From Candidatus Heimdallarchaeota archaeon (GTDB taxonomy: Archaea; Asgardarchaeota; Heimdallarchaeia; Heimdallarchaeales; Heimdallarchaeaceae), in assembly GCA_030668875.1 (NCBI GenBank), contig DAOVER010000026.1, forward strand, positions 1 through 32,000: a stretch of DNA of 32,000 bases. The letters are read 5' to 3'. Numbering within the stretch: the stretch's first letter is position 1; each line of letters begins with the position of its first letter. Below, in pieces: positions 4,476-26,387 of the stretch. The notes below the pieces were generated by a model that did not search any database, had not been told where the DNA came from, and saw only the letters and a list, made by a program, of their open reading frames with translations. The position numbers and the translations under genes were made by a program.

Positions 4476-4556
4476 AGTGATTCTCCTCAACTATTCATTT
4501 TCAATTAAGTAGAAAACTCTTAAAAGGAAGGAAAAATATCAATATTTGAAGTAGAG

Positions 4557-5870: not shown

Positions 5871-6039
5871 ACTTATTCTTGTTAGTTATACATTTTTTGC
5901 CATGTTTTAAATATCCATATTCACGTCTTAGCCTTCCTTTTTGGCAAATTCTTGGCATATGTAAAGCGAAAAGTATATAATAGCTCAAAAATGCCTTTTA
6001 CCAAATTAAGTCTCGCTGGTGAATGTTTCAGTCATTACC

Positions 6040-6047
6040 TTTAAATA
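6040..6047 (+). promoter_or_regulatory. Candidate archaeal TATA box TTTAAATA upstream of the CD36-like gene
   Basis: Matches the TTTAWATA consensus 48 nt upstream of ATG 6096; SD-like GAGGA at 6084-6088. Specificity is low in AT-rich DNA. Confidence 0.35.
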
Positions 6048-6095
6048 TCTATTAGCGAGACGAAACGATAAATAATTATTAATGAGGATAATAGA

Positions 6096-9000
6096 ATGAA
6101 AGGTAAATTCCGTACTATTATAGGTGCTTTGATTTTAACAATTACTGTAAGCTCATCAGTATCAATGGGTGTTTTGCTCCCTCTTCACTCCTCGAATCTA
6201 ATTACCCAAATTTATGTTGATATGAACAGTAATGCTTGTTTGACAGATAGTGATTTCTTGCCAAATGACGGGGTTGGTAATTTCTCTGAATGGATGTATA
6301 CAGGCTTAGAGACAAATGATTCAAATTTTGTTGATCAAGCAATTTTTGAATTCTTCAATGTTACAGATAGAGAGGGCTATCTCGACTATAATACGCCCAT
6401 ATCGTACTTCTTTGTACAAGGTGAACTAGCTTTTGACATTATTATTAACAAAACAGTTCTAGAGTACAATGTAGAAGATGATTATGTAGTTTATGCTTAT
6501 AGAAAACAATTTCTCTTCAATGAAGAAGACTCAACCTTAACTGGTGATGAGACCGTTTTGAATTTCAATTATCTTTGGCCATATTATATTGAATATTTTG
6601 GAAATGGCACAGAGTATGGTTTTCAAAGCTTTATTGCCTCAAGACTACTTCAAGAAGAATTACTAGGCTTTAATGCATCATTAGGTTATACTTTTAATGA
6701 ATTAGCTTATGCTGTTATGAACAGGACCTACGCTGAAGAAGAAGGCATACTTAATCTTGGCGTTTATTTGCCCCACAATTGGTTAAGTGTAAGACCTGCT
6801 TTTCCAGATCTTAACCTTGATAGCGCAACAAGTTACAAAATACTATATGATGCTACATACAATGGTCATGATTATTCTTTCCTAACAGGAGAAGCTGGTT
6901 CAGCTAAATACTTCCTTGACCTAGTAAGGGGTCTTGAATTTGAAGGACAATATGATTTAATTGTTGATGTTGAACAACTTCTAGCAGATATTTACGGAAT
7001 TGATACTCCACAAGAGCAAGAATACGCAAAATCCTTTGCAGCTTATATGAATTATTTACTTGGAAAGCCTTCACTTGATTGGCTTTATGAAAACAAAATA
7101 TCATATGCTTGTGAGCGAACTGCTATGGAATGGGTGTTAGGTATTGAAGATCCTCTTATGGGTGGAAAAAGATTCCCCTTAGTTTACAACCAAACCTTAT
7201 CAAGTTCAAGCATTGATTGGGATTTAGATATGTATTATGCTGAACAACTTGGGACAAATGATGTAGCTGATGTTGGTAAAATCATAGCAATCGCAAATAT
7301 TCCAGGATATTATTATGCTCAGTCTATGGAACTCTTCGTAGAAGATAACTTTGCATATGTAATAGAAGGTGGGACAGATATTAAAATTGTAAATATGACT
7401 GATCCCTTATTCAAAGCAATCGGTCAATTCGGAGACTTCATTATTGACGATGTTGAACCCAATCCTACTTATGATCCAATTGGTGTAGATGGTTATATTT
7501 CAAATCTTGTTGCAGTTGATTCATTTATTTATGCGGTTGAAGGTGAAGCTGGTTTAGAAATACTCAATGCAACTGATCCAAGTGCTATCTACGAACTTCA
7601 GCAATGGACTAATTTTGGAAATGCTGATATGCGCGATATTGATCACGCAGTTTTCGGGACATCTGTTCCATATGATGCTCTTATAATAGCAAATGGGCAA
7701 TATGGTCTAACCTTTGCAAGATTGCAAACTGATGACAAAATAGTAAGTACAACAATTGTTAATTTTGCAGGATTAAATGGTGATGCAACTTCAGTAGATG
7801 AATACAATGATTATGCTTTTGTAGGTTTAGGAACTGACGGAATTGATGTAGTTAGTATAGATGGTCTCGATGGTTCAATGGCACTTGAACATCACTATGA
7901 TTCAACCGATTTCGCTACCTTTAACAATATTCTAGATGTTAAAGCAGAAAATGGATTTCTATACGTTCTTGATGAAGTTGAGGGATTGTTAATATTTGAT
8001 ATAGAATTTGATGGTGCTTTAACTGAACAAGGTCAATTCGCATTCGGACCTACTGAAACTCCATACATTGATGTTCATATTGAAGGAACAAATGCTTATC
8101 TTACACAAGGAGATTATGGTCTTGTTGTAGTAGATATCTCTAACAAACTCAGTCCTTCTGAAACAGCTAGGTTTGACGGTGCTGAACACAAAGGTATCGC
8201 TTATGGTGTCTATGTTGATGGAAATGATGTTTATCTTTCAGATTATTCTCAAGGATTAGTTCATCTCAATTATGTTTCTAATACTTTCTCAATTGTTAAT
8301 AAAGATCAGTTACACACTTTCGTTGAAGCTTGGCAAAGTGAGAACAATATTCAATTGAATAATTGGGTTCTAAGTGATCCTGAATTCAAAGCTAATGAAA
8401 CATATGATTCATTTGGATTATACACATTTGTTGAAAGGGGTTACAGACAACAATGGACAGAGTATTTCCTTAGACCTTACATCTTCTCCTCATTAACAGA
8501 TACTGCTCTGTTTGTTGATAAAACCGTGTTGGTTTATACAGCTCAAGCTCAGATACCTTATCTCCAAAACGACGAAAACTCCCTATACTGGATGCATGCA
8601 GCCAACTTCATTAATGAAAGTTTCCAACATGCAGGAAGATGGAGTCTTCTTCATGGAGAAGAATTTTTAGCAACTGATTTTGCTATTACTCATTCCTTCC
8701 CTGGTTCGTTAAGAGATGAGTTCCACATGCAATTCATGTTAGTAGAACCTATCACAGGATCTATAATTGAACGCAAAGATAGAGTACAATATAACACAGA
8801 AGCCGTAGATTACAAGGAAACATATGATCTCCTCAATAAGACAACATTTGGATACGAGTGGGAAGTCTTAACGGTAAGCATTTACAATAATTTGCCTGTT
8901 GATCATATTTATAAGACATGGCATGTTACATATCCAGCTTTGCCTGGAGACATGGCAACACTCTTCTGGCATGAAGATATCTATAAAGCTACAAATAATT

Positions 9001-9170
9001 TCTATCATGAAGTAAGAGAAACCTTCTTAGATCTAATTGATAGTGCTGATGCTTTGAGAACATTGGGTGCTTTTGGTTCAATGTTTATAGTTGCTGCCGG
9101 TTTTGTTGTTGCATCTGTTGTGCTTAATATCATGAAGAAGAAGCACGATATTTCACTAATAAAAGAATAG
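6096..9170 (+). CDS. CD36/LIMP-2 (scavenger receptor class B)-like surface protein with an inserted LVIVD-repeat beta-propeller
   Basis: N- and C-terminal TM helices. CD36-like blocks: [20 protein letters not shown]...[53 protein letters not shown]. About seven LVIVD-type repeats (e.g. [22 protein letters not shown]). At least 12 N-x-S/T sequons. Confidence 0.72.
   Translation: [1024 protein letters not shown]
7317..8273 (+). repeat. About seven LVIVD-type repeats (predicted 7-bladed beta-propeller)
   Basis: [143 protein letters not shown]. Confidence 0.85.
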
Positions 9171-9178
9171 ACCTCTCA

Positions 9179-9200
9179 TTCTTTTTCTCCTTTTTTTCCT
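9179..9200 (+). terminator. Oligo-T terminator after the CD36-like gene
   Basis: TTCTTTTTCTCCTTTTTTTCCT starting 9 nt after the stop; T5 and T7 runs are typical of archaeal terminators. Confidence 0.5.
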
Positions 9201-9344
9201 ACTTAAACTTTTAAATAATTAATGTCTAATCATTTTTGCCGGTAAAATTTAACTTTAAATAGTTATAACAGTAATATGATTTATACTTGTGAGAACAGTC
9301 TCAATATTATTATATGTTAATAAGACATATGACAAGAAGACTAA

Positions 9345-9349
9345 GAGGT
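9345..9349 (+). promoter_or_regulatory. Shine-Dalgarno-like GAGGT supporting the TTG start of top6B
   Basis: GAGGT lies 7 nt upstream of TTG at 9357. Confidence 0.5.
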
Positions 9350-9356
9350 AAACACA

Positions 9357-12300
9357 TTGTCTGATGATAAAAGAGCAAAGAAAATGTCAGCAGCTGCATT
9401 CTTTAATGATAATAAAGCAATAGCTGGCTTTGGAAATTCAATGCGGGCAGTATTTACGAGTATCAGAGAACTTGTAGAAAATGGTTTGGATGCTGCAGAA
9501 ATCAGGGGAGTCAACCCTGTTATTTCAATTTATTTACGCAAACTTTCTAGTAGAGAAATTAATGATTTGCTAGATGTAACCCAATATAAAAAGTTGGAAA
9601 AACATCTTGATTTTCTGCAATTAACCTGTAGAGATAATGGGGTTGGAGTTCCAAGCAATCAAATAGCGGATTTGTTTGGACGAGTATTAACAGGAACTAA
9701 ATATGGTGTAATTCAGACTCGTGGTCGATTTGGCCTCGGAGCAAAAATGTGTTTACTTCACTCTATGTCTTCAGTTGATTTACCAGCACGTATCAAGAGT
9801 CGTTACTTCATGGATGATATGACTCATGAACTTCATCTAATGATAGATCTTGAAAGAAATCAACCTATCGTCATGGAACAAAGAGAATATTTATCTGGAG
9901 ACCCAAATGCGTTAGAAGAACCAGGTGTTGAGATTAGCATAACCTTTACTGGCGCTTGGAGATTAGCAAAGAATAGTGTTAAGGAGTACTTCAGACAATT
10001 AGCCATTATTACTCCTTATGCAAGTTTTGACATAAAAGTTCCTGGAGATAAGGAAGGAGAATTTGAGGAATTACATTATGTGAATGTAGTAGATGATATG
10101 CCTCCTCCCCCCCAGCATATTAAAATTCATCCTTGGGGATGTGATATCACTCAATTCAAAGCAGAATTGTCTTCCACTAAAACTAAAAAAATGAAGGCAT
10201 TTCTTGCTGAACATTTTATGGGAGTAACGAATGAAATTGCTGAAGATTTCTTCCAGTTACTAGAAATAGACCCAAACAAATCACCTTCGAATATAACTTC
10301 GAAGGAAATACGAAGAATAGTACATGAAGGTTTTATTAAAGCTTATCAAGAAGCTAAGGATGTTAAGAGGAAACGAGACAGAATATTCCAATTTGATCCA
10401 CCACGAGGAGATGCCCTTTCTCCATTAGGTGCAGGGAGACTAAGGAAAGGTCTAGAGAAAGAATTGCAACCAAAATTTGTTGAAGCTGTTACAAGACCTC
10501 CTAAAGCTTACTCTGGTCATCCTTTTGCAATTGAAGCAACTATGGGTTATGGTGGGAGTGTAAATGAAGCTGCTCAAGCTAAAGGAGCTACCGTTAATGA
10601 TAATAAGATAATTTACAGGTATGCTAACAGAATACCACTGATTTTTGGAGCAGGAAATGATGTAATTACTCAAGTTGTTTCCTCTATCCGATGGAACGAC
10701 TATGGTCTAACTAGACAGTCTGATCCTCTTGCAATTGCAGTTTCATTAGTTAGTACAAAAATACCTTTCCCTGAAACAAGTAAAGAGTATATTTCTAATG
10801 TTCCTGAAATTGAAGAAGAAATAAGATTAGCTCTGATGCAACTAGGAAGGAGACTCAAAACCTTTTTGAGCAGAGCAAAACGAAGAAAAAGAGAACATGC
10901 AAGGTTATCCAGATTTGTTAAATCAGCACCAGTTATAATTGAAAACCTTACCCAAATTCTTGAAGATGAGAACCTTAAATTCACCGATTTCCGACTAGAA
11001 ACAGATCGAATTTCTGCATCTCTAGCTCATGGTTCTCCAAAGAAAGTTCGCTTGTATATGCCAATTGGAACGCGATTATTCGGAGCAAATGTTTGGTGTC
11101 CAAATAATATTCAAACAGCATTAAAAAATAATAATATTGAGTCAGTTTCAGAATTTCTACTTAAAGATTCAAAAGAATTAGCTGCGTTCCTTCAAATGAC
11201 AAAAGCTCAGATTTACGATATAAAGTTAAGAACTATCTCTGAATTAGACAGAGACAACTTGAGTCCAAGTTTTGATACAAAGACCTTAGTGTCTCGTCTT
11301 GTTGAACGAAGGTTCTCCTCTGAAGGTGAAAGACGGTACATTTCCTTGAAAGATGCATTATACAGACGATGGATACAAAATGTTTACCACTATTTAGCAA
11401 CAGATTTTGATAAACTTCGTGCTGTTTCAGGAATGCTAGAGAAGTTCTTCGAAACTAAGAAAGATGAATTACTTAATGATTACTTAGCTAAAGGAGCTAA
11501 GACAGGTAAAAACACTATATCAACTATAGACAAAGCTATTGCTACTTTCAATACTGTATCAGACTTAAAGAAAGAACAACTCTATCCTCCCTTTAAGTAT
11601 TTAAAATCTGAGACTGACAATGTTCTTGGAGAAGATTTGTCAATAGAAGAATTTCTTTACCAGACTGTACAACCCACATCTATTAACTATCATCCAGAAA
11701 TAACTCGAACGCTTATTGAGTATTTGAAAATTGTATTTACACAAATCACTAATAAATTCCCTGCATTTGCTGCAAGCAATATAACAAGAATGAAACCTGA
11801 TTGGACAGATGGTTATACAAAAAATGCCTTCCATAGAAGAAAGATAAAAACAGTTAATGATTTTCTGAACCACTCTACAGATGATCTTATTGATATAAAA
11901 GAACTGGAAAGAATATTGTATGAACAATACATAGAACTAATTGCTTCAAATTCAAAATCTGTTCCTTTGAAAGATTTCTCTTTTGTTGAAATTCAACAGT
12001 TAAAAGAGGATGAAACTCTTGTTATGAAAGATTTAGCTAAACACGGAATAAAGACTCTTGCTCAGTTCTTAAGCTGTACCTCTGAAAAAATATTACTAAA
12101 GAAGTTTAATACTTTAGGTACTCTTTTACTGAAGGAATCAAAGTTCAAATTATCTGCAAATTTACATGATACTAACAGGATTGTTGATCAATCTCACATC
12201 AAAATTATTCCTGAAAATGTTGAAACAGAATTTGTAAGAAATCAAATATTTACAACTTCTTCTTTTTTGGCGAAATCTTCTGTAATATTAAAGAAAATGG

Positions 12301-15300
12301 GAATGAAGAAGAAAGATATTGAGAGAGCAAAGAAGGAACTTGGTACTCCTTTACAGAATTGGGTCGATCATGATGAAATTCTCAAGAAATGTGGTATAGT
12401 AATCTTAGAAGAATTATTCTTTAATGATTCATCCGAATATAATCTTACACCTGAAGAAAAGAAAAAGTATGATGAAAACATCATTTTCCTCCGTTCTCCA
12501 CTGATTTTTGCTCTACCCGAATTAAGAAGTTCCTCCCATCTTCTTACTGAAATTGGTATTAACAATATTGGACGTTTCCTAATATGGTCTAATTCTGAAC
12601 TCTCAGATATCCTTTATCTATCTGTCAATGAGATAAAAGCTCTGAAGAAGAAAATTGTTTATCAAAAACAAATTCAATCTAGGGATGAACTAGGGAAAGG
12701 CTTAACACTTCTTTCAAGGCACTATCCTAATTTGGTGAAATATTTTGATAAAGAAGCACCATCGATTCAGGATTTATATTATGCTTATCAGTCAGAAAAT
12801 TTCTCGTTTAATACAGGTTTTTGGAAAAAACTATACAAACTGAGTGAACTATCTCAACAAGAAGCTATTGATTTAGTTCATCTTTATCCTAAGAACTTCA
12901 AAGATATTGATACATTAAAAGAAGCACTCCTACGTTTGAAATCAAGGAATGTTGAAACTATACGTCAATTCATGGAATTGCAACCAGAGATAATTGAATC
13001 AAAATTGAGTGTCTCAAAGGAAAGGAAAGTTGCTAGAGCTCTCTATGATACGATCCGATCAAGAAGATTTGAAGGAGAACAAGAATTACACAAACAAATA
13101 CTTCTTCTTAGTGAGTATGATGAATTTCAAAGAAATTTTGGTTCTCCTATTTCTAGGATTCCTGAACTTGCTCTGGAAGAATTAGAGAAATTTCGAAGTC
13201 ACGATATATTAGCTGTTCATCAGATATTCGATCATACAGTAGACGAAATAGCTACTGTGCTTGGTCGTGAAAAAGGATCAGTACAACAATTCATGAGCAG
13301 TTTTACCCTCTTACAGAAAGGAACACCATTCTTTGAAAAAGTAGATAGAAACAAATACAAATCACTAGTTTCATTTGAATTTGAGGATCTTGAACGTTTC
13401 TCTTCAATCGAGATTCAATCCCTTATTCAAGCTGGTTACGCTTCAGTTGACCAGATTTTTTATCTAACCCATCCACTTACTTTTTCCTCTTCCATTCTGA
13501 ACTGGAATGTTGTAGACAAATTTAGAAAATTATTACGATCACCTCTTACATTGGTTACATGGGAGAAAACAGTTAAGACAAAAACTTTTGATGAGACTGA
13601 GAATAAAGAAGTTGAAGTTGAGGACGTTCAAATTTCTACATTAACTACTTTACAATTAAATATTTTACAGAATCAAGGTATTTCAAGAATCATCGACCTT
13701 CTTGTAAGCAAACCAGAAACACTTGCAGAAGCTCTTAGCATCAGTATGGAAGAAGCCAAGATACTCCAGAAAGATATCAGAATTAGTGACACTGGAACTG
13801 ATTTAGCAGAATTGGACATCTTCAAATCAGAAATTGTTGATAAATTAGAGGAAAACAATGTTCTTACTCTTGAGGATTTATACTTCTCAACTTCGAAGAG
13901 CAAATGGAGAGTTAAAGAAGTTCCATGGGATATCATAGAATCATTCAAAAGTATTCTCAACCTTCCTCTTGCACATCTGTCAGATATGTTGGATGAAGAT
14001 ATTCTAACTGCTTTAGAGGATGCTAATGTTAAAACTCTGTTAGGATTTATGCTTACAACTCCTGAAAGTTTAATGAATAAAACAGGTATACCTGATGAAA
14101 GATTTGAAACAATAAAACGCGGTATGGATATTTCTGACATATTCAGTTACTTCTCACTTCCAAGTTATTTCCTCCCAGGTTTAACCTTCCAGCAAACCGA
14201 GATTCTAAAAGAAAATGGTCTTAAATCAGTCGCAGAATTTATAATCAGCTCTCCACAGAAAATTAACAAATTAATCAAAGTGCCTGCTAAGCAATTCCGA
14301 GAAATCACTGCAGATTTAACCACTCAAAGCCTACAAGCTCTGTATGATGAGAAAGGAATCTTTGCTTTTGAGACAAAGCTCTTCGATAAAATGGAACAAC
14401 GACTATTGGGAAGGGATTCAATATTTGAATTTGATAGGTTTCAAACCATCCAAGAAATGTATTATACACTGAATAGAGATTTCTATCAAAATAATCAAGA
14501 CCTATGGGAAAAGGTCTCTGCAATCCAAAAAGTATTATCACTTCCTCTGCACATATTCACCGAAATCTCTGAATATGCTCTTGAAATTATGAGCCAAAAT
14601 GGTATTAATTATGTTTATCAGCTACTCTTTATTCATGATTCAGATATAACTGATCCATTACTATTCAGAACTGTATCAACTTATTCTTCCAAAATAATCG
14701 AAATGAGAGCTTTTCATTACTTTTCCAAGCTTCCTGCTTTTGTTTATAATTCAAACTATTTCAAGAGAATATTGAAGGATACTGTTAACAAATCTCTCTC
14801 AGACGTTATTACTGATGAAAAGGTAATCAAAGATTTAGCTGCAAAAGATAAACAATATTTATACGAAAACTATAACTTAACTATCATTCGTTCAATTCTA
14901 GAACTACCACTTAGAATTACTCCTTACTTTACAAGAATAAAGAAAGTTAGAAGGGATGAATATAAAAATACGAAAATTGGTGATGTTTTCGATATTGATT
15001 TAGAAGAACATTCTGCTCTCTCCTCCTTTTACTCTAGATTATATGAAGAAAACTCTTTCAATAAATTAATCTCGCAATTAACTATCCCAATATCTTCAAT
15101 GGGATTACCCCGTGAACTTGCCTTAAAACTAAGCAAATCATCCATAGGTACATTAATAGATTTTTATTCCACTCCTGAGAAACAAGTTTCTGAAATCACT
15201 GGTTTTTCACAGAAGAACATTCGAGAAATAAAAGATGGATTAACATATTCAAACATTGTTTCTTTCCGAGTATCACAAGCTCATAAAATAAAACCTTCTT

Positions 15301-18300
15301 CCTTTGTATCAGAAAAGCAGATTTTCGACCTTATGGGGAAATCGATATCGGATATAGAATCTCTCTTTTACTCCGCAGAACATTTAGGAATCTCAAAATT
15401 ACTCCCTCTTGAAAATTATAAGAAAATCAAGGAAATTCTATCTGGGTCTATAAGATTTGTAGGATTTCTCTCATTTGATGAAATAAGAAGGTTAGAGTAT
15501 CATAATATTAATTCGATAATTGATTTTGCTCTACTCTCTAAAAAAGATCTCTTTACCATTACACAAAACCCCATTTACAAGGAGTTTCATGTTCTAGATT
15601 TGATTTCCTTTGATGAGTTATCAGAGAAAAGGATTCAAGCTGCTATACCTCTCTCATTGTGCCCCTCGATAGAAGAAGATTACTTAGAGAAAATAAAAGA
15701 AATTGGAATAAACTCCATTCAAGATTTTATCTCAAGAATGACAGAAATTAGAGAATCTCATCCTCATCTAGTAAAATTAGATATCTTCCGAGAAGTACAA
15801 ATGTATCTCTCTTCTGTAGCTTATATTGGACTTAATAATGAAAGTGTCCAGAAACTCATTTACTCAGGTGTTGGCGATATCTTATCTTTCATAACTGAAG
15901 ACCCTTCAACTATATCTCTGATTCTTGGAATAAGTGAAAAACAAGTTGATAAATATGTCAAACTTGCAGTTCCAAGTAATTTGGTTGAGAAAGTAGACAA
16001 CAAAGGTGTTCTTCTTACAGAATTTTCTGGATTATCTAGAGGAAGGAGAAATTCCTTACTAAAATCTGGAAAAGAAACAGTTCAAGATCTATTTAGTTCT
16101 CGTTATCAAGCTTATTCTCAATCTAACATCTCTGATGCGTTGATGAGCGAATTTATTGAAAGCTGTAATATGTCGTTATACAGAATTGAAGAAATTGAAC
16201 CAGGAATTAAGGCTAAGCTTTCAAAGAGTGGAATAACAAGAATTATTGATTTATTCTGCAGTACTGATGCAGGACTAAAGAAAGCTCTTGATGGTAAACT
16301 CCCCAAAGAGTTTAAGCAAATTAGAAAAGGTCATTTCACCTTAACAAAAGGAATTCCGCTAAGTTTGAATGAACCCCTGCAAGATATTATTAGAGAACTT
16401 AATATCGAACCTTCCAACAAAAAGATTGAGGACATGTTTGGTTTTGTACCTGAATTTTTGCTTCAATTTACAGAATCTGAAAGAATTGAGAAGGATAAGA
16501 ATTTAGCATTCCTAGAACAGATAGTAAGTTTCTTGAGTCTTAATATTCTATCATTACCGTCATTTGATACCACCACTAAACTGATTCTTTGGAATCGTGG
16601 TATCCGCCATATAATAGAACTATTATCCACGAATATGAACAAAATTGATGGTATCCCATATCAAGTAATCTCAGAGGTTCGATCTTACCAGAAAAATTTT
16701 AGTTTAAGTAGAAGCATGTCAGAGACATTTTCTCCATATATTGATGATGTACTCAATTTACCTGTTAAAAAGCAAATTAGATTCCAGAATTATGGTCTCA
16801 CTAGTGCTTTATTACTAGTTGATTTCATACCTCATCCCATATTCAGTTTCACTGCAAATGAGCAATCTATTCTCCGGATTATTTCAAATAACATGTTCAA
16901 ACCAATAACCTGGTTATCTTCAGATGTATCATTTAAGATTGAAGACATAAACTTACTAATTCAAAATAGAGCTATAAACATCCTTTCAGCTCTGCTTCTA
17001 TTATCTGATCAAGATGATACTAAAGCACTAGATACTTTATCTAATAAATACTATAAACCGATTTCTGCTTACCTCAATTCATCTGTCTTACAACTTAGTG
17101 CCCCTGAATGGGCTCTACAATTATCTAATACAAAGATAATAACAGATGCTAATAGCCTAAAATTACTAAAGAAAGAGAACATTTCTTATCTTGATGAATT
17201 CCTGACATTAGAAAGCAAGTTTTTGAATAACCCTAATCTTATAACCGATGTTTTACCAAAACTACTTTCACTAAAAAGCCTCCCCATATCCTCCATCAGT
17301 GACCTATCACCCAGTAATATTCAAAAATTAAAACGTTCAAGAATAAACAATGTTTATGAGTTTCTTGTAGTTCCTGCTCCATTGCTTTCAAATCTTCTAT
17401 CAATTTCTGTTGAGAATGTTAACGCAACTAAATCTTCAATTGATCTTTCTTCATTAGAAAAAACAGCAAAACTTACTGGTTTGGACCTAGAACTCTTCCC
17501 AGAACTTTCCCAAGATTCTAGAATAATTCTTCAAAGAAGAGGTTGTGTGTCTCTGAATCAAGCATCGAAGATGGATCTAGATCTCATTCCACTTCTTTCA
17601 GAAGATAAGTTACTTTTACAAAACCTTATCGCTATGTTATTTACTCCCACCACATTAATTGGAAAAATACTTAAATTAACAAAGAATGAAATTGATGAAT
17701 TACTAATTCGTGATGTATGTACATATGTAGACCTCTTAGAGCTTCCTCAAAAAACTTGGCCTGCAAAAATAAGGAAAAGTTTGTCAGATAAGGATTCTGA
17801 TCCAACATATCTAATTAAGAACTTACAAAACCTTGAGAAATTCGGAGTGCCTATAGAAAAGCTAGATTTAGCAAAAAGTGTTACTAAAGCGCTAGTAGAT
17901 GCAGGAATTGTAACAATTGATCATCTATACTATCTACCCATAACCTATGTAAGTGCAAGGAGTAAAGTTAAACAACCCATTCTTGAAGAAATTAAGAAGA
18001 AATTATCCTACAATATAAATTTCCTTCAAGATATCTCACATACAACTTTAGCTGGTTGTTATTCGAAAGATTCTTTTACGATAATTAGTTGCTTGATTTA
18101 CTGGAATAATTTATCTAAGGAAATAAGAACAGATTTGGAAGGTTCTCTAGACAGTATCAAACTAATTGAAGAAACAAGATTTATTGAACCACTGACTCCA
18201 ACGGAAACAAAGCTAGAATCTATTGGTATTCACTCGTTAAGATCATTCATTTTATCCCCACAGATTAAAAAAGAAACAGGTTTAGCAACCAAACTATTAC

Positions 18301-21300
18301 CATCTCTATTAGCTAATATTCGTTTCCTAAGTCTAGATCCAAAGCAGATTTCTCGCTTGAAGAAAACTGGTTTTGTTACAGTGGCAGATTTGCTTCTAAA
18401 TACTTCAAAAACAATATCTGTTAAATCCAAATTAGGTAAGAATGCAATTGATGAAATTCTCAATAACATAAAAATTGATAACTTAACCAGTTTGATTAAA
18501 TCGATGGAACAAGAGCATTTACATGATGCATTTTATCTGAGTACTAATGACAAAACATTCTTGAAATCAATAGGTGTTTATAGTTTAGCAGACTTAAACG
18601 AGTATACTGTTCTTGACTGGTTTGTTTCTAAACAAAAAATCCAAAAAATCAAAAAGAAAATTAACGCTTTGTTAGATACTAATATCCTTTACTATCCAGG
18701 AATTACATCTAAACAATATGCAGAAGTTGTTGAACAATACTTCATGAGGAATATATTTACGATCAAAGATCTAATGATATCAACAACAGTCGAGAAGACA
18801 AGTGATTTGATTGAATTTCTAACCATTTTCTCTACTAACAAACCTAAAATCCAATCCCAATATGTGACCTCTCTTTCATTCTTAAAAGGCATTGAAACCA
18901 AGGATTTGTTCGAGAAAAATGTTAAATTAGAAAAATCTGCAACAATTAATGATCTTATAGTAGCATTATACAGAAATTCTGAGGAATTGACCAAAAAGGG
19001 CGATGATATTATCAAACAGATTAACTACCCAATTTCTTTTTCATCAAAACTTAACCTCAATGAAGCAAATGATTTACGAAGCAAAAACATCCTTTCATAT
19101 GGAGATGTACTTACCAAACCAGTAGGTTATTGGGGGACTTTTGCTTCAGCGAAACTAAAGAAGAAGATTCTTGAAATTCTTAGTACAATTACATCACAAA
19201 ACATTGAAAATGAAGGTAAGAAGAGAGTTCAATTAAGTAGCATGAAAATATTCGATACAAACCTTAAGAAACAGCTTACATCAAATTATAAGACAATTGA
19301 TGAAGTTATTCATGCAATAAAAACAGAAGATACTAAAATCTTAAAACCATTGGAAAGGAAAATCACTAAAGTTTTGTCTACTCCTATCTCTCTTCTCAAA
19401 TTACCAAAAATCAAGATTAAATCATGGAAAAGACTTATATCGACTGTATCTACTTTAGAAGAATTCTACTTATTAACAGATCAAGAATTAGTCAAAATTC
19501 TATCCTCAAGCAAGGAAGAAATTGTTAAATTAAAGATCAATCTCGGGTCTGAAAATATCATCTTACCTCCAAGAATAAAGGAAAATAAGATCTTTACTAG
19601 TTCAGATGTTACAGAACTAAGTGCTAATGGGATTTCAAATTATGTACAGCTTTTTGAAGTGACAATAGAAATTTCTAAACTCAGCACTTCGTTAAAGGAT
19701 AAAATTGCCTTCTACAAGGAGTTTGATGTTAAGCAATTGGACGAGAACATAGAAGAAACCATACTCCTGAAAGATTTTGTATTTCTTGACTTTTATGCAG
19801 ATTCTCTGGCTCTAAGTAGAATACAAAAGGAATCTGTAAAGAATCTTTCCTCCTTGCTCTTGTCTCGTGGAACTCATCTATCAAAGATATTTGATATAGA
19901 TCTATTTGATATAGATCCCAATAAAGACAAAAGTAATCTGCTCAATACAACTATAGAGTATTTCCTCTTGATCGAGAAATATCGACCTAAGGTTTACACA
20001 AAAATTGTTGAATCTTTACAAGAAAAATACTCTTCACAATTAAACACTTTGCTTTCTTATCTTAATAGGTCACCAATTCTCCTTTCAGGACCAAATCTGT
20101 CAAATATTAACAAAATAGTTAAACTTCCTTATGAAAATATAAAGGACTTGCTCTTACTATCCAAGGAGAAACTTATTCGAGAAATAAATGATGTTGCTGT
20201 TCAAAGAAATGTTAGAGGATTGACATTATCTGTTTTGAAAGATCTTGATTCCAAGCTGACTTATATTCCAAAAGAGTTTTTGACAGCTTACGAGATAAAC
20301 CAATTAAAGAAAGAGAATATTTATTCCTTTGAAGAAGCTTTGGTTTTCAATAGAAAGTCAACTAGTAGAAAATCTAAGCCTTGGTTACTATCTGAAAAAG
20401 TAAGAAAAATATCCACTATTAACACGCTCTCACTTTCTTCTTATCTCCCCTCATCTAAAATACAAGAAAGACTACTGAAACTTAAAATAACCAATGTGTA
20501 TGAACTGGTTTATTATTGCCAGAATACAGAAAAAGAAGAAGACTTGAGTCTTTGCCAATCTGTTATTCAATCTGTAAGTTCTATTAATATTGAGGAAATT
20601 GAAACAAAAGAGAGAAGTAGATTTACTAAATTCTTTAATGACCCCGATATTCTTTCTTATTTACGAAGTCAAGATATCAGAACTTTTGGACCTTTAGTAC
20701 ATTATTTAGAACAGTTAGAGGATGAAGCTTTTACCCCTGAAATTGAGAAAATCTTATCCGTTATGCGTTTTCCAGTTTCTGTATTGTCAGATAATAAGAA
20801 ACTTGTGCTAAAACTAGAAGGTGAAGGTTATAACCAAGTAGTTAATCTTCTTATTCCTGCAAAAATAATCAATAGTTTGAAAAGCAATATTACCGAGAAT
20901 CAGAAGAAAGTTCTCACCTCTCTGATTAACATGCTTACTTATCAAGAAATATGTCGAATAATCACAAAAGATCATTATCCGATATCAAAACTTAGTTTAA
21001 TCGATGATATTTTGTTAAAAGAGTTAGTAAAGGCTGGATATGCATCAGTAGCTCATCTCAAATCAGCTGAAACAATTATTGCTGATACTAGCAAACTAAA
21101 TCTACAACAAATTTCTCGTATTGTAAGACTCTTTGATTCGTCTATTTATTACATGTCTGAAATGCTTAAAGACTATCCACAAAGTGCTTTTACTTTGTAC
21201 AATAAAGGAGTTAACACACTATGGGATATTTTCCTAGTTGGAAGTAAGGAAATTTCCAAGATTACAGGTATTTCTGTTCGACAGATAACTTCCTATTTAT

Positions 21301-21986
21301 CAACTCTCAATCCTCAAGCAATAAAACTTGCTCAAAAAGACCAAATTGCACTAAAAGAAAAGCTTACCTACTTAACTGTTGAAGATGTTGAACGATTAGA
21401 ACAAAGTAACATCACTTCCATACAACAGTTATTGTTCCTTACAAAGGAAAATAAGACCACCTCTTCGCTCCAGCGAAGTAATGTGAAGAAATTCATCCAG
21501 CTACTTGGAATGCCTTTAAATGCAATAGATATACAAGAGACAATTATTAAACAGCTAGAACAACAAGGTATCACTTTAGTAAAAGATTTCATTATTTATC
21601 CAGCAGAACCTATGGCTGGCAAAGTAGATTTAAGCTATGTTATGATTAAAAGGATTAAGGGAAGACTCCCCTTAGCTACAAAAAAGAAGGCTAAGAAATC
21701 TTCTCAAAAAACTTCTTCAGCAAAACCTACAACCACAAAGAAAACTACAATTGCCAAGAAATCAGTAACAACTCAACGAAAAGCTAAGACAACAACCGCC
21801 TCTTCTAAACCAAAACCAAAAGCTAAGGTTAAGCCAAAAGCTAAAGCTAAACCAAAACCAAAACCAAAATCAACTAAACAGATGACTTTGATGGATATGA
21901 AATCTACTTCAAAAAAGAAATCATCTCCAACTTCAAAAACGAGAAAAAGCTCAAAAACCACTACGAAAAAAGGTGAAAAATCATGA
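9357..21986 (+). CDS. top6B: DNA topoisomerase VI subunit B with a giant (~3600 aa) C-terminal extension of HhH-like repeats and a Lys-rich tail
   Basis: The first ~540 aa match Top6B: SAAAFFNDNKAIAGF, GHKL N-box RELVENGLDA, DNGVG, GTKY..QTRGRFGLGA, H2TH, RYANRIPL, KIPFPETSKEYI, EIRLALMQLGRRL. The single uninterrupted 12.6-kb ORF ends in an ATGA overlap with top6A. Confidence 0.93.
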   Translation: MSDDKRAKKMSAAAFFNDNKAIAGFGNSMRAVFTSIRELVENGLDAAEIRGVNPVISIYLRKLSSREINDLLDVTQYKKLEKHLDFLQLTCRDNGVGVPSNQIADLFGRVLTGTKYGVIQTRGRFGLGAKMCLLHSMSSVDLPARIKSRYFMDDMTHELHLMIDLERNQPIVMEQREYLSGDPNALEEPGVEISITFTGAWRLAKNSVKEYFRQLAIITPYASFDIKVPGDKEGEFEELHYVNVVDDMPPPPQHIKIHPWGCDITQFKAELSSTKTKKMKAFLAEHFMGVTNEIAEDFFQLLEIDPNKSPSNITSKEIRRIVHEGFIKAYQEAKDVKRKRDRIFQFDPPRGDALSPLGAGRLRKGLEKELQPKFVEAVTRPPKAYSGHPFAIEATMGYGGSVNEAAQAKGATVNDNKIIYRYANRIPLIFGAGNDVITQVVSSIRWNDYGLTRQSDPLAIAVSLVSTKIPFPETSKEYISNVPEIEEEIRLALMQLGRRLKTFLSRAKRRKREHARLSRFVKSAPVIIENLTQILEDENLKFTDFRLETDRISASLAHGSPKKVRLYMPIGTRLFGANVWCPNNIQTALKNNNIESVSEFLLKDSKELAAFLQMTKAQIYDIKLRTISELDRDNLSPSFDTKTLVSRLVERRFSSEGERRYISLKDALYRRWIQNVYHYLATDFDKLRAVSGMLEKFFETKKDELLNDYLAKGAKTGKNTISTIDKAIATFNTVSDLKKEQLYPPFKYLKSETDNVLGEDLSIEEFLYQTVQPTSINYHPEITRTLIEYLKIVFTQITNKFPAFAASNITRMKPDWTDGYTKNAFHRRKIKTVNDFLNHSTDDLIDIKELERILYEQYIELIASNSKSVPLKDFSFVEIQQLKEDETLVMKDLAKHGIKTLAQFLSCTSEKILLKKFNTLGTLLLKESKFKLSANLHDTNRIVDQSHIKIIPENVETEFVRNQIFTTSSFLAKSSVILKKMGMKKKDIERAKKELGTPLQNWVDHDEILKKCGIVILEELFFNDSSEYNLTPEEKKKYDENIIFLRSPLIFALPELRSSSHLLTEIGINNIGRFLIWSNSELSDILYLSVNEIKALKKKIVYQKQIQSRDELGKGLTLLSRHYPNLVKYFDKEAPSIQDLYYAYQSENFSFNTGFWKKLYKLSELSQQEAIDLVHLYPKNFKDIDTLKEALLRLKSRNVETIRQFMELQPEIIESKLSVSKERKVARALYDTIRSRRFEGEQELHKQILLLSEYDEFQRNFGSPISRIPELALEELEKFRSHDILAVHQIFDHTVDEIATVLGREKGSVQQFMSSFTLLQKGTPFFEKVDRNKYKSLVSFEFEDLERFSSIEIQSLIQAGYASVDQIFYLTHPLTFSSSILNWNVVDKFRKLLRSPLTLVTWEKTVKTKTFDETENKEVEVEDVQISTLTTLQLNILQNQGISRIIDLLVSKPETLAEALSISMEEAKILQKDIRISDTGTDLAELDIFKSEIVDKLEENNVLTLEDLYFSTSKSKWRVKEVPWDIIESFKSILNLPLAHLSDMLDEDILTALEDANVKTLLGFMLTTPESLMNKTGIPDERFETIKRGMDISDIFSYFSLPSYFLPGLTFQQTEILKENGLKSVAEFIISSPQKINKLIKVPAKQFREITADLTTQSLQALYDEKGIFAFETKLFDKMEQRLLGRDSIFEFDRFQTIQEMYYTLNRDFYQNNQDLWEKVSAIQKVLSLPLHIFTEISEYALEIMSQNGINYVYQLLFIHDSDITDPLLFRTVSTYSSKIIEMRAFHYFSKLPAFVYNSNYFKRILKDTVNKSLSDVITDEKVIKDLAAKDKQYLYENYNLTIIRSILELPLRITPYFTRIKKVRRDEYKNTKIGDVFDIDLEEHSALSSFYSRLYEENSFNKLISQLTIPISSMGLPRELALKLSKSSIGTLIDFYSTPEKQVSEITGFSQKNIREIKDGLTYSNIVSFRVSQAHKIKPSSFVSEKQIFDLMGKSISDIESLFYSAEHLGISKLLPLENYKKIKEILSGSIRFVGFLSFDEIRRLEYHNINSIIDFALLSKKDLFTITQNPIYKEFHVLDLISFDELSEKRIQAAIPLSLCPSIEEDYLEKIKEIGINSIQDFISRMTEIRESHPHLVKLDIFREVQMYLSSVAYIGLNNESVQKLIYSGVGDILSFITEDPSTISLILGISEKQVDKYVKLAVPSNLVEKVDNKGVLLTEFSGLSRGRRNSLLKSGKETVQDLFSSRYQAYSQSNISDALMSEFIESCNMSLYRIEEIEPGIKAKLSKSGITRIIDLFCSTDAGLKKALDGKLPKEFKQIRKGHFTLTKGIPLSLNEPLQDIIRELNIEPSNKKIEDMFGFVPEFLLQFTESERIEKDKNLAFLEQIVSFLSLNILSLPSFDTTTKLILWNRGIRHIIELLSTNMNKIDGIPYQVISEVRSYQKNFSLSRSMSETFSPYIDDVLNLPVKKQIRFQNYGLTSALLLVDFIPHPIFSFTANEQSILRIISNNMFKPITWLSSDVSFKIEDINLLIQNRAINILSALLLLSDQDDTKALDTLSNKYYKPISAYLNSSVLQLSAPEWALQLSNTKIITDANSLKLLKKENISYLDEFLTLESKFLNNPNLITDVLPKLLSLKSLPISSISDLSPSNIQKLKRSRINNVYEFLVVPAPLLSNLLSISVENVNATKSSIDLSSLEKTAKLTGLDLELFPELSQDSRIILQRRGCVSLNQASKMDLDLIPLLSEDKLLLQNLIAMLFTPTTLIGKILKLTKNEIDELLIRDVCTYVDLLELPQKTWPAKIRKSLSDKDSDPTYLIKNLQNLEKFGVPIEKLDLAKSVTKALVDAGIVTIDHLYYLPITYVSARSKVKQPILEEIKKKLSYNINFLQDISHTTLAGCYSKDSFTIISCLIYWNNLSKEIRTDLEGSLDSIKLIEETRFIEPLTPTETKLESIGIHSLRSFILSPQIKKETGLATKLLPSLLANIRFLSLDPKQISRLKKTGFVTVADLLLNTSKTISVKSKLGKNAIDEILNNIKIDNLTSLIKSMEQEHLHDAFYLSTNDKTFLKSIGVYSLADLNEYTVLDWFVSKQKIQKIKKKINALLDTNILYYPGITSKQYAEVVEQYFMRNIFTIKDLMISTTVEKTSDLIEFLTIFSTNKPKIQSQYVTSLSFLKGIETKDLFEKNVKLEKSATINDLIVALYRNSEELTKKGDDIIKQINYPISFSSKLNLNEANDLRSKNILSYGDVLTKPVGYWGTFASAKLKKKILEILSTITSQNIENEGKKRVQLSSMKIFDTNLKKQLTSNYKTIDEVIHAIKTEDTKILKPLERKITKVLSTPISLLKLPKIKIKSWKRLISTVSTLEEFYLLTDQELVKILSSSKEEIVKLKINLGSENIILPPRIKENKIFTSSDVTELSANGISNYVQLFEVTIEISKLSTSLKDKIAFYKEFDVKQLDENIEETILLKDFVFLDFYADSLALSRIQKESVKNLSSLLLSRGTHLSKIFDIDLFDIDPNKDKSNLLNTTIEYFLLIEKYRPKVYTKIVESLQEKYSSQLNTLLSYLNRSPILLSGPNLSNINKIVKLPYENIKDLLLLSKEKLIREINDVAVQRNVRGLTLSVLKDLDSKLTYIPKEFLTAYEINQLKKENIYSFEEALVFNRKSTSRKSKPWLLSEKVRKISTINTLSLSSYLPSSKIQERLLKLKITNVYELVYYCQNTEKEEDLSLCQSVIQSVSSINIEEIETKERSRFTKFFNDPDILSYLRSQDIRTFGPLVHYLEQLEDEAFTPEIEKILSVMRFPVSVLSDNKKLVLKLEGEGYNQVVNLLIPAKIINSLKSNITENQKKVLTSLINMLTYQEICRIITKDHYPISKLSLIDDILLKELVKAGYASVAHLKSAETIIADTSKLNLQQISRIVRLFDSSIYYMSEMLKDYPQSAFTLYNKGVNTLWDIFLVGSKEISKITGISVRQITSYLSTLNPQAIKLAQKDQIALKEKLTYLTVEDVERLEQSNITSIQQLLFLTKENKTTSSLQRSNVKKFIQLLGMPLNAIDIQETIIKQLEQQGITLVKDFIIYPAEPMAGKVDLSYVMIKRIKGRLPLATKKKAKKSSQKTSSAKPTTTKKTTIAKKSVTTQRKAKTTTASSKPKPKAKVKPKAKAKPKPKPKSTKQMTLMDMKSTSKKKSSPTSKTRKSSKTTTKKGEKS
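11115..21670 (+). repeat. Roughly 50 degenerate protein repeats of the form L-x3-G-I-x-T-h-x-D-h (HhH_5 / RadA-N / NusA-AR-like)
   Basis: Examples: LQNQGISRIIDLLVSKPETLAEALSISMEEAKIL, LEDANVKTLLGFMLTTPESLMNKTGIPDERFETIK, LKKTGFVTVADLLLNTSKTISVKSKLGKNAIDEIL, LYNKGVNTLWDIFLVGSKEISKITGISVRQITSYL. Manual count, about +/-10. Confidence 0.75.
21675..21983 (+). repeat. Lys/Thr/Ser/Pro/Ala-rich low-complexity tail including (PK/AK)n
   Basis: KKKAKKSSQKTSSAKPTTTKK...KPKPKAKVKPKAKAKPKPKPK (21807-21869)...KKKSSPTSKTRKSSKTTTKK. Confidence 0.9.
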
Positions 21987-23392
21987 GTTCAGATCATAAA
22001 TTTGTTATTAGTAATTCAACAGTTTTACCTGCTATTGAGAGAACTGCTTCTTTTGATAAGGATATTCTAGTTAGAGAAATATACAGTTGGGCTAGAGAAA
22101 CATTTGACCTCAAACGAGGATCATATGTATTATTCTTAAGAAGCTTCAAGAAATGGCACAAACTTGAACCTACAAGAAAATTATCTAGATACAATCTCCA
22201 AAAGGAAACAATGAGCATTAGCATAAAAAACTCAGTTTCAATAGACAAACTACAATCCGTTAGAGAAGAACTAGAACATTTAACAAAATACTTAATGCCT
22301 TTTGGTGTTACTCACGTAGCAACCAAGAATTCACAAGAAACAAACAATCTTCTTGTTGAATATGCTTTAGATTTCCTAAATCAAGCAATGGTGTCACCTA
22401 ATGATGCAGCTTTTCAGATTCCATCTAGAGCGGGAACAAATGTAGGTTTTGATGAGGATCAAGAATTAGTTCTTATCGGTCGTCAAATGATTGATAGACA
22501 ATTTAGAAATTTAGCTTCAGTAAGTTCTGTTGAGCAAATGACCATTGTTATGAAACTCATTCACGATATTCTTTCCAGAGATATTCACAGTACTAAAAGA
22601 GATATATTCTATATGAATGTAAATGCATTTGATAAGCAGTCTGTTTCTGATTCTCTTATAGAAGATGTGGGAGCAATGTTACAAGTTACTCGTTCATCTT
22701 TGAATATTAGTGCTTCTTCCAAAGGGATTGTTGTTGGACGTATTAGTTTCAAAGAAAAAGGGGATCTCATAGATTGTCGTGCAATAGGAGCTGGCAAAGC
22801 TATATCACCAAATATTGATGATATAGAGAGTATGGAAACTGATGCAGAAATGTGTTTGGTTATTGAGAAGGATGCTGTCTTCAATAGGCTTGCAGAGGAT
22901 CAGTTCTATGATTATGTCCCAAGCATCCTCATAACAGCAAAAGGTCAACCGGATATAGCTACAAGACAATTTTTGAAGAAAATAAACGATGATCTCAGTC
23001 TACCTATATTTGCTATTATGGATGCCGACCCTTATGGTTTTGAAATTATGCGTGTATATAGCGTAGGGAGCAAAGCATTGAGCTTTGAATCAAGTCATCT
23101 AGCCGTACCTAGTATTAAATGGTTGGGTTTACTACCAAGTGATCTTTCTCCTGAAAGTGGATTTGATATTCCAAGAAGTGCTTTAATTAAAATGACTTCT
23201 AAAGACATTCATCGATCTAAACTGATGCTAGATGAGGAATTTGTCAAAAGAAAACCAAAATGGAAAGAGCAACTAGAAATCCAAATAGCAACTGGGTTTA
23301 AAGCTGAAATACAAGCACTTAATGCAAGAGACCCACAATATATTACTAATTTCTATCTTCCACAAAAAATTGAGGCGGGAGATTTTATCTAA
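21983..23392 (+). CDS. top6A: DNA topoisomerase VI subunit A (Spo11 homologue) with an N-terminal ubiquitin-like extension
   Basis: IPSR..TNV, STKRDIFY (catalytic Tyr position), Q..SD.LIED, TOPRIM VIEKDAVF and MDADPYG, KGQPD..TR, KAEIQAL. At 469 aa it is about 100 aa longer than usual at the N-terminus. Confidence 0.96.
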   Translation: MSSDHKFVISNSTVLPAIERTASFDKDILVREIYSWARETFDLKRGSYVLFLRSFKKWHKLEPTRKLSRYNLQKETMSISIKNSVSIDKLQSVREELEHLTKYLMPFGVTHVATKNSQETNNLLVEYALDFLNQAMVSPNDAAFQIPSRAGTNVGFDEDQELVLIGRQMIDRQFRNLASVSSVEQMTIVMKLIHDILSRDIHSTKRDIFYMNVNAFDKQSVSDSLIEDVGAMLQVTRSSLNISASSKGIVVGRISFKEKGDLIDCRAIGAGKAISPNIDDIESMETDAEMCLVIEKDAVFNRLAEDQFYDYVPSILITAKGQPDIATRQFLKKINDDLSLPIFAIMDADPYGFEIMRVYSVGSKALSFESSHLAVPSIKWLGLLPSDLSPESGFDIPRSALIKMTSKDIHRSKLMLDEEFVKRKPKWKEQLEIQIATGFKAEIQALNARDPQYITNFYLPQKIEAGDFI

Positions 23393-23453: not shown

Positions 23454-23834
23454 TTACTTTAGCAGGACAATCTCAATTGTGGATACTGTTTTTGGACCAT
23501 AACCTTCTACATCACTTGGCAATTCTTCAGATCCTATAACCACTTTATCAATTACTACGCTGTCTATCGGGTATTTTCTACGAGCTATTTCAGCAACATC
23601 AACTGCTTTCGAGATTTGTCTTCCACGGGCTTGAATTCCACACTTATTATGTTTATTGAGTATTGTAATTGCAACTAAAACATAGCTAATCGTTGGTTTC
23701 TTTCCGATGTAAATAATATGACTCCGCTCTCTGTACTCAGTTGTGGGTTTAGTGGCTTCTTTAGGCGTTTCTTCTTTCTTAGCTTCTTCCTTAGCTTCTT
23801 TCTTAGCTTCTTCCTTAGCTTCTTCTTTACTCAT
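23454..23834 (-). CDS. albA: DNA/RNA-binding protein Alba with a charged repetitive N-terminal extension
   Basis: IYIGKKP..SYV, ARGRQISKAVDVAE, VVIGSE, VSTIEIVL. Start moved to ATG 23834 because AGGTGA (23840-23845, minus strand) is an SD 5 nt upstream and contains the track's GTG start. Confidence 0.95.
   Translation of the reverse strand: MSKEEAKEEAKKEAKEEAKKEETPKEATKPTTEYRERSHIIYIGKKPTISYVLVAITILNKHNKCGIQARGRQISKAVDVAEIARRKYPIDSVVIDKVVIGSEELPSDVEGYGPKTVSTIEIVLLK
23778..23825 (-). repeat. 12-bp tandem repeat x4 encoding the EAKE/EAKK units of Alba
   Basis: Plus strand: CTTAGCTTCTTC, CTTAGCTTCTTT, CTTAGCTTCTTC, CTTAGCTTCTTC. Confidence 0.9.
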
Positions 23835-23999
23835 GAATTTCACCTATATTCCATTGTCTGTCAAATGCTTCAGTATAAGCGTTATTAAAATGTCATTCCC
23901 ACGTTTAAAAATTTTTCCTCCTCCTTAAGTGACACACAAAAGAACAAATAAATACATTAAGGTAAAACAAGAATAGGGCTTAATAAGGCCAAAGGATGT

Positions 24000-25796: not shown

Positions 25797-25801
25797 AGAA
25801 T

Positions 25802-26386: not shown

Positions 26387-26387
26387 A

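Follow-up and report, generated by a model that had tools for sequence, protein, structure and literature searches.

A giant topoisomerase VI B subunit with a tandem array of helix-hairpin-helix-type units in Heimdallarchaeia

A giant Top6B with a conserved catalytic core

The DNA studied here is a stretch of 32,000 nucleotides from a Heimdallarchaeaceae genome (Candidatus Heimdallarchaeota archaeon, GenBank assembly GCA_030668875.1, contig DAOVER010000026.1, positions 1 to 32,000), hereafter called the window. In it, the gene for the B subunit of topoisomerase VI (Topo VI), top6B, forms a single uninterrupted frame of 4209 codons plus a stop (window 9357-21986, + strand, TTG start). The encoded protein is the sole Top6B of this archaeon and is about eight times larger than a normal Top6B. 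Its catalytic core runs without any stop into a long arm of helix-hairpin-helix (HhH)-type units, which is followed by a basic tail. A first-pass annotation, made from the letters of the sequence only, had proposed such an undivided frame, a complete core, an HhH-type extension and an ordinary top6B-top6A operon, and our results agreed with it on these four points. The best reading, which we hold with moderate confidence, is that of a long folded arm through which an active Topo VI is anchored to DNA and to PCNA.

The catalytic core (residues 1-545, window 9357-10991, +) comprised the GHKL ATPase, H2TH and transducer regions, as established by NCBIfam, Pfam and alignment to Top6B of S. shibatae (2zbk_B). 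Two NCBIfam Top6B equivalogs matched residues 5-543 above cut-off (PRK04184, E 3.6e-134; TIGR01052, E 3.9e-116), and Pfam model Topo-VIb_trans matched the transducer (residues 349-515, window 10401-10901, +; E 2.3e-54) over profile positions 1-158 of 159. The core aligned to residues 6-492 of 2zbk_B (E 7e-88), and it is this unbroken alignment that covers the H2TH region. The ATP-binding motifs were kept with respect to 2zbk_B, namely the N-box (ELVENGLDA), G1 (DNGVG, within DNGVGVP) and G2 (GRFGLGAK), as was the switch lysine (SKE here, aligned to GKE of S. shibatae). The only deviating motif was WKxY of the transducer, which reads WNDY. Since the ATP-binding motifs and the switch lysine are conserved, the core looks catalytically competent.

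This part of the protein is that of a canonical archaeal Top6B. The GHKL/H2TH/transducer region aligned end to end with both S. shibatae 2zbk_B (530 amino acids) and M. mazei 2q2e_B (621 amino acids with an Ig-like C-terminal domain; E 1e-59), the catalytic motifs are kept and the top6B-top6A operon occurs in the giant form as well. The difference resides in the C-terminal addition, which amounts to 0-100 residues in canonical Top6B (one or two helices, or an Ig-like domain) and to about 3660 residues here. It is known that individual lineages have added C-terminal extensions to Top6B (Villain et al. 2022, PMC9348778).

A Shine-Dalgarno-like GAGGT (window 9345-9349, +), read directly from the sequence, lies 7 nucleotides 5' of the TTG start. 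At the other end, the TGA stop of top6B overlaps the ATG of top6A as ATGA (21983-21986), and the gene order top6B-top6A is kept in relatives. top6A (21983-23392, +) codes for 469 amino acids matching Pfam TP6A_N (2e-21) and TOP6A-Spo11_Toprim (8e-58), and its translation displays the RDIFY tyrosine motif (5Y-CAP) plus the Toprim domain. Judging from this arrangement, Top6B is presumably co-transcribed and translationally coupled with Top6A. The first 125 residues of Top6A (window 21983-22357) contain an N-terminal extension of about 110 amino acids, with a weak ubiquitin-like/FERM_f0 Pfam match that fell below cut-off (E 0.0048).

Composition and fold of the arm

The arm (residues ~578-4106, window 11088-21674, +) was recognised through Pfam, profiles and AlphaFold2 (AF2) models as an array of (HhH)2-like five-helix units. 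They are of the type found in the N-terminal domain (NTD) of Rad51 and in the C-terminal domain of the RNA polymerase alpha subunit (alphaCTD). Pfam matches in the arm were RAD51D_N (6e-28, summed over stretches), HHH_5 and RNA_pol_A_CTD, to which precomputed annotation added HHH_XRCC3_RpoA (PF26169). A unit spans about 55-70 residues and reads h-x3-(G/N)-(I/V/L)-x-(T/S)-h-x-(D/E)-h, followed by a second, degenerate hairpin. The motif recurs every 54-72 amino acids, or about every 122 where alternate units are degenerate. When a profile of 21 units was compared to PDB sequences, it matched alphaCTD of RNA polymerase (2e-5), the NusA AR repeat (0.003) and the RAD51 NTD (0.007).

AF2 models were obtained for two fragments with alignments of orthologues as input, and both were confident and almost wholly helical. 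Residues 530-1700 (1171 residues, 56 sequences) reached a pLDDT of 86.5 and a pTM of 0.72, and residues 3000-4130 (1131 residues, 19 sequences) a pLDDT of 85.1 and a pTM of 0.56. Two predicted beta-hairpin insertions were located between units by DSSP (residues ~1326-1347 and ~1400-1428, window 13332-13640, +; strands at residues 797-818 and 871-899 of AF2 model m9c6f521b4c7b). Single predicted units superposed on NTDs of RAD51 paralogues in VIA-align (Z 7.1 and 8.1, rmsd 2.2-2.3 over 56-60 amino acids); a Z below 8 is modest for helical domains taken alone and agrees here with the sequence evidence. They also superposed on the RAD51C NTD, the yeast Rad51 NTD, NusA AR2, alphaCTD and SAM domains, and weakly on topoisomerase V (Topo V, Z 4.5). 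Foldseek searches of the PDB with the whole models of about 1100 residues gave no match at E <= 0.001 for either, Topo V (8df9_B) being nominally first with E 0.039, and only the local, single-unit matches are informative. The units thus have an HhH-type fold, as the first-pass annotation had proposed.

A single unit of the arm thus resembles by profile, Pfam and fold (Z 5.8-8.1, rmsd 1.7-2.5 over 56-64 amino acids) the NTDs of Rad51/RadA and of RAD51 paralogues, alphaCTD and NusA AR1/AR2. These domains occur in one or two copies per protein, whereas the giant Top6B displays dozens in tandem, apparently packed into a continuous structure. From the high pTM values it would appear that adjacent units are packed in a defined manner and do not form beads on a string.

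The number of units depended on how they were counted. The unit hidden Markov model (HMM) found 22-31 of them, and a profile-profile scan (hhalign) recognised 23 at a probability of at least 90% and 32 at at least 50%, 21 being the template's own members. A free-running iterative HMM drifted to a two-unit model of 182 positions, and a hand-seeded unit model was used instead. Counting the repeated pattern of four to five helices in the AF2 models gave about 16 units in residues 530-1700 and about 17-18 in 3000-4110, which would extrapolate to a total of about 50. In stretches such as 2156-2400 the spacing is about 122 residues, so that alternate units are probably too diverged to score. The figure of about 50 repeats given by the first-pass annotation is thus in line with the helix pattern, whereas at the level of sequence profiles only 23-32 units are recognised.

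Distribution, conservation and integrity of the giant frame

Long frames carrying a Top6B transducer were present in nearly all of 82 Heimdallarchaeia genomes, covering genus, family, order and class. Families are designated here by anonymous labels, f1 being the family of the window (Heimdallarchaeaceae; the genome of the window is G000). In f1 the frames measured 4140-4305 amino acids, two closed genomes included (G044, 4185; G045, 4305), and collinear orthologues within the family ranged from 4140 to 4341. The frame of f2 reached 4244 amino acids, those of f3 and f4 3473-3587, and those of f5 (Hodarchaeales-type) 2312-2346, including closed genome G056 (2312). In f6 the frame was at least 1323 amino acids long and interrupted by contig ends, and f7 displayed a Top6B of about 1120 amino acids plus a second, normal copy of about 500. 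Outside Heimdallarchaeia, f20 (about 2290 amino acids) and f27 (1353 amino acids) carried long frames too. All 16 loci that were fetched showed the full top6B frame followed by top6A.

Likewise, a database of 5.8 billion proteins contained 68 giant homologues (2314-4341 amino acids) labelled Heimdallarchaeaceae, Kariarchaeaceae or Hodarchaeales. NCBI and JGI name these 68 proteins plainly "DNA topoisomerase VI subunit B", and core-trimmed phylogenies would miss the architecture because the sequences carry that plain name. The main texts of topoisomerase VI phylogeny and structure papers, of an archaeal topoisomerase review and of a 2025 Asgard replisome paper made no mention of a giant HhH-bearing Top6B, nor of a PCNA-interacting peptide (PIP) motif in Topo VI, supplementary files and paywalled papers lying outside this scope. 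No description of the architecture was known to the first-pass annotation either.

Protein length was nearly fixed within families. Identity between G000 and G044, which were collinear over 4100 residues, was 42%, above the 10-32% that units within the protein have in common. In BLASTP, residues 9-2323 of G000 aligned with residues 18-2290 of the 2312-amino-acid protein of G056 (27% identity). Since this part is collinear with the entire Hodarchaeales-type protein, the proximal arm (residues 541-2330, window 10977-16346, +) is the shared, ancestral and most widespread portion, while the distal part varies. Synonymous sites were saturated within the genus (pS ~0.7-0.8), which made dN/dS unusable there, and the closer relatives P0003 and P0005 were used for this reason. 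Against them, dN/dS was 0.03-0.07 for the core, 0.12 for residues 541-4100 (0.08-0.18 for the proximal arm) and 0.39-0.43 for the tail, with practically no indels outside the tail. These values point to purifying selection on the arm, which appears to be an old, position-specific structure conserved unit by unit.

A frame of this size might be suspected of being an artefact, be it a misassembly, a read-through of two genes or the decaying tail of a pseudogene. The genome was assembled from a metagenome, the frame begins with TTG, and no RNA run was found among the listed holders of window 12000-18000. Yet the same collinear frame occurs in dozens of independent assemblies, closed genomes included, and a dN/dS of 0.12 extends over 3560 codons. 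In addition, Logan contigs of 12.6 and 16 kb covered 9227-21801 and 9000-21801 without gaps, indels or joints, breaking only in a KPKAK low-complexity run (21802-21879). These two gap-free runs are not independent, because they possibly represent the source sample of the window's DNA. Two other samples covered every bin of the frame with strain single-nucleotide polymorphisms only, and just three fixed differences from the window were recorded, one silent (A216A) and two missense (S1762A and V3435G). The artefact, whose probability we regard as negligible, is effectively refuted.

The array is rare. In this genome, the unit profile retrieved only Top6B plus one weak match on contig C71. When a 930-residue piece of the arm was compared to 1.84 billion proteins, no more than 34 representative clusters were matched, either giant Top6Bs or HhH-only sequences. 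Stand-alone HhH-array proteins were considered and rejected as an explanation for the latter, which are shorter, core-less matches. Two of them were looked up and are fragments, because each fills a whole contig of 3.2-3.7 kb.

The arm tip and its PIP-like motif

The protein ends in a basic, K/T/S/P-rich tail (residues 4107-4209, window 21675-21983, +; net charge +37, pI 11.6), which is predicted to be disordered on the basis of its composition and of a pLDDT below 40 at the end of the second AF2 model. Similar polycationic K/T/S/P tails terminate the f1-f4 proteins, with net charges of +16 to +40 over the last 110 residues. In f2, two SAP domains are present at the tip (E 1.3e-19). The f2 tip (P0069:3700-4099 and L016, G024) is organised as a repeated block, a basic KPKAK linker followed by a SAP domain, in two copies.

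Within the tail of the window's Top6B lies the PIP-like motif KQMTLMDM (residues 4174-4181, window 21876-21899, +). The pattern [KR]Q-x-T-L-x-[DE]-h occurred 22-39 residues before the C-terminus in almost every Heimdallarchaeaceae tail, and its Q, T, L and D were invariant across 10 family members in an otherwise hypervariable alignment. With respect to the PIP pattern Q-x-x-[LIVM]-x-x-[FYW]-[FYW], the Q and L are kept, and M/V/I/L plus a variable small or polar residue stand in place of the two aromatics. PIP-like C-termini occurred in several lineages, as KQTTLLDM, RQKSLNAFQ, KQKSLDEYS, QKTLDAML, G[QR]LDS[YF]M and VDKFF.

A complex of the tail with this genome's own PCNA (contig C12, 261 amino acids) was predicted from 22 aligned PCNAs and 10 aligned tails. 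The KQMTLMDM tail was placed in the canonical PIP pocket with an ipSAE of 0.80 in three runs; of three controls, the best scored 0.03. The mark applied to this score is reached by 58 of 80 solved complexes and by 2 of 110 mismatched pairs. The runs agreed to at least 49%, with a partner pLDDT of at least 51. In the model, tail residues 4171-4181 contacted PCNA residues 41, 44-48, 231-232 and 248-255, which we take to be the equivalents of the hydrophobic pocket and C-terminal strand in human PCNA-p21. The prediction lends support to, but does not demonstrate, docking of the KQxTLxD motif on PCNA as a putative non-canonical PIP.

The comparison with known archaeal motifs goes in the same direction, with clear differences. 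The motif of the window and those of the other lineages resemble the archaeal PIP consensus KTTQSTLDSFFK (PDB 1RXM, PMC4929162), which is also the PIP peptide of A. fulgidus Fen1. Archaeal PIP-box clients of PCNA (Fen1, RFC-L, PolB) have in common with the Top6B tail a stretch of basic residues ahead of Q-x-T-L-x-D, close to a disordered C-terminus. The modelled Top6B tail also occupies the same PCNA pocket. Yet the motif of these clients contains two aromatics and stands at the very end, whereas that of Top6B is devoid of aromatics and lies 22-39 residues upstream.

Possible roles of the arm

Charge and hairpin sequence both bear on the role of the arm. Over 3554 amino acids, the arm of the window's Top6B carried a net charge of +8, and residues 1401-2330 within it amounted to a block of -20. 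In f2-f5 the net charge of the arm was -29 to -115 (pI 5.1-5.8). Glycine represented 2-4% of the arms, and canonical G-h-G hairpins numbered 0-1 per arm; in the 3554 residues of the present one, the canonical phosphate-contacting hairpin was limited to a single G[IVLFM]G. Of 21 aligned units, about 17 had G or N in the first hairpin and about 5 had G in the second. The exception is the short paralogue of f7, the long one of its two Top6B copies, which retains 3-4 G-h-G hairpins in six units with canonical HhH motifs (HHH_5 4.5e-27, IMS_HHH). The f7 pair is exemplified by G071:C20 (510 amino acids) and G071:C39 / L023:952-4320 (1123 amino acids).

We propose that the arm is a tether. The A2B2 holoenzyme would consist of an ordinary Topo VI engine with one long folded arm on each B subunit. 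The tip of the arm would grip DNA non-specifically through the polycationic tail (through SAP domains in f2) and, in the family of the window, would also dock PCNA through the non-canonical PIP motif. The two arms could then leash Topo VI to replicating or clamp-loaded, newly replicated chromosomal DNA, and such a leash would raise the local enzyme concentration and focus both activities, decatenation and relaxation, at the crossings of sister duplexes. The arm itself would serve as a spacer or as a protein-docking scaffold, since acidic or neutral HhH units may dock proteins as NusA AR repeats and RAD51-paralogue NTDs do. From these data we infer the rigidity of the arm, the binding at its tip and its function as a tether.

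The first-pass annotation favoured a DNA-wrapping arm converging on the design of Topo V. Many of the approximately 50 units would then bind duplex DNA and wrap or gather the flanking DNA, which would change the processivity of Topo VI or the crossings that it selects. In its layout, with a topoisomerase core preceding a long HhH array, the protein does resemble Topo V, whose (HhH)2 domains wrap DNA (PMC9489208). The HhH-type fold of the units also speaks for wrapping, as do Topo V being the top, non-significant, match of the whole models (with a single-unit Z of 4.5), the canonical HHH_5/IMS_HHH motifs kept by the 1123-amino-acid f7 paralogue, and the position of the arm, which in established Topo VI structures would leave the transducer beside the DNA gate. 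Yet wrapping along the whole arm is not what the sequences suggest. The arms range from neutral to strongly acidic, with a pI of 5.1-5.8 in f2-f5, and practically lack G-h-G hairpins, the glycine of the second hairpin is found in only about a quarter of the recognisable units, and the position-wise conservation of units together with a near-fixed length per family is unexpected for a redundant, non-specific DNA binder. A tether or scaffold fits better because it is at the tip that features for binding DNA or the clamp cluster, and a spacer or docking scaffold is likelier because the arm is acidic or neutral and conserved unit by unit. We consider wrapping as rather unlikely.

An alternative judged equally improbable is that the arm acts primarily as a protein-interaction scaffold or an element of the chromosome axis, the binding of DNA or PCNA at the tip being secondary and without a dominant tethering role. 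In this role it would bring in proteins of segregation, repair or chromatin, or associate with itself. The acidic or neutral units resemble in their fold the protein-binding NusA AR2 and RAD51C/D NTDs, each is conserved by position, the high pTM of the models suggests a defined architecture, and synteny with an Alba chromatin-protein gene is conserved. However, no cognate partner family can be pointed to, the unit being found only in Top6B in this genome and in 34 clusters among 1.84 billion proteins.

Several observations weigh against the tether that we favour. The HhH-type fold of the units and the canonical HHH_5 motifs of the short f7 paralogue imply that there may be some direct DNA binding along the arm. 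Its rigidity is deduced from AF2 confidence, and translation of the full 470-kDa chain purely from conservation. At the tip, the PIP-like motif is without the aromatic pair, and PIP-PCNA complexes are textbook structures, so that the docking result may reflect likeness to solved PIP complexes. Moreover, inspection of the f3 and f4 tails revealed no PIP-like motif, and tethering to PCNA cannot therefore be the universal role of the arm.

A bolder version of the tether, which we put forward as speculation and deem improbable, sees Topo VI not as a free enzyme but as a machine anchored to the replisome and the chromosome. Two rigid arms, possibly on the 100 nm scale, would hold the decatenase between sister duplexes. 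In the same speculative and improbable scheme, each arm would clip to PCNA rings or DNA of the two sister duplexes via the PIP motif and the polycationic or SAP-bearing tip. If true, the arrangement would represent, in a prokaryote, the equivalent of what eukaryotic Topo II does in tethering chromatin and forming the axis, and of the scaffolds of accessory factors around Spo11.

Heimdallarchaeia are the closest known relatives of eukaryotes. Throughout this class, 1,800 to 11,000 additional bases of coding sequence, under strong constraint, are devoted to an arm of the B subunit, and different lineages place different DNA- or clamp-binding modules at its tip. This offers a testable handle on the coupling of a type IIB enzyme to replication or chromosome organisation, on the role of acidic HhH arrays and on whether tethered type II topoisomerases predate eukaryotes.

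Relation to Topo V, Lokiarchaeia-type Top6B and gyrase

Topo V of Methanopyrus kandleri is a type IC enzyme with 12 tandem (HhH)2 domains that wrap DNA, three of which are apurinic/apyrimidinic (AP) lyases (PMC9489208). Topo V and the giant Top6B share the succession of a topoisomerase core and a long tandem array of (HhH)2 type, as well as weak structural matches. Yet their cores are unrelated, that of the giant Top6B being type IIB without a type IC domain at the N-terminus, and its arm, which has four times the length of the Topo V array, is neutral to acidic with hardly any G-h-G hairpins. The likeness is one of analogy in layout and not of membership.

Top6B proteins of Lokiarchaeia-type families f14 and f25 (1013-1156 amino acids) likewise combine an Asgard Top6B with a long C-terminal addition. 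In their case it includes a region rich in K and P, a Rho_N/SAP-like motif and a QTTLPII motif. A search of these proteins with the unit HMM gave no HhH units, and the extra length is partly due to an insertion in the core. Their loci (L073:3220-6687, -; L074:285-3653, +; L075:2912-5950, -) code for proteins of about twice the normal size, in which the transducer starts near residue 720. The motif extends as QTTLPIITT, and a small conserved C-terminal domain appears winged-helix-like by eye.

Villain et al. (PMC9348778) tied C-terminal Top6B additions to the presence of gyrase. In a search of 300 Asgard genomes, the GyrA C-terminal domain was matched in f1-f6 and f27, and also in f14/f25, whose Top6B lacks HhH units. 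It was matched in none of 9 f7 genomes and neither of 2 f20 genomes, both families with an HhH-armed Top6B. Gyrase is therefore neither necessary nor sufficient for the arm among the genomes searched, and co-occurrence with gyrase was rejected as its cause, f14/f25 displaying the match without an HhH arm and f7 and f20 an HhH arm without the match.

In the genome of the window, gyrA and top6B are on different contigs. GyrA measures 1725 amino acids (contig C15 of G000, L034:5602-10779, -) and owes this size to intein and LAGLIDADG homing-endonuclease insertions (Intein_splicing 5e-24, LAGLIDADG_3 5e-34), with gyrB just upstream and overlapping (L034:10736-12001, -). In f5 and f6, gyrA lies immediately upstream of the giant top6B (e.g. 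G061:C23 45935-47954 and G048:C9 112467-114490).

Neighbouring genes

Upstream of top6B, window 6096-9170 (+) codes for a 1024-amino-acid protein with LVIVD repeats and a faint CD36-family match, which is a conserved 5' neighbour in relatives L042 and L043. Directly 3' of top6A and on the opposite strand, an Alba chromatin-protein gene was found (23454-23843, -; Pfam Alba 4.5e-12), whose product displays an N-terminal extension of about 40 amino acids; L043 has an Alba gene at the same place. It is followed by three tightly packed genes with overlapping or abutting start and stop codons (24000-28742, +), coding for a 598-amino-acid protein without Pfam match, a Ras/Roc/Arf-like small GTPase (197 amino acids, Ras 1.5e-35) and a 784-amino-acid HEAT-repeat protein. 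Near the beginning of the window, a 379-amino-acid protein (461-1600, -) displayed a weak match to the Tubulin/FtsZ GTPase domain (5.8e-9), and a fragment with a Cas12f1-like/TnpB TNB domain (11-352, +; 2.6e-11) was located at the very edge.

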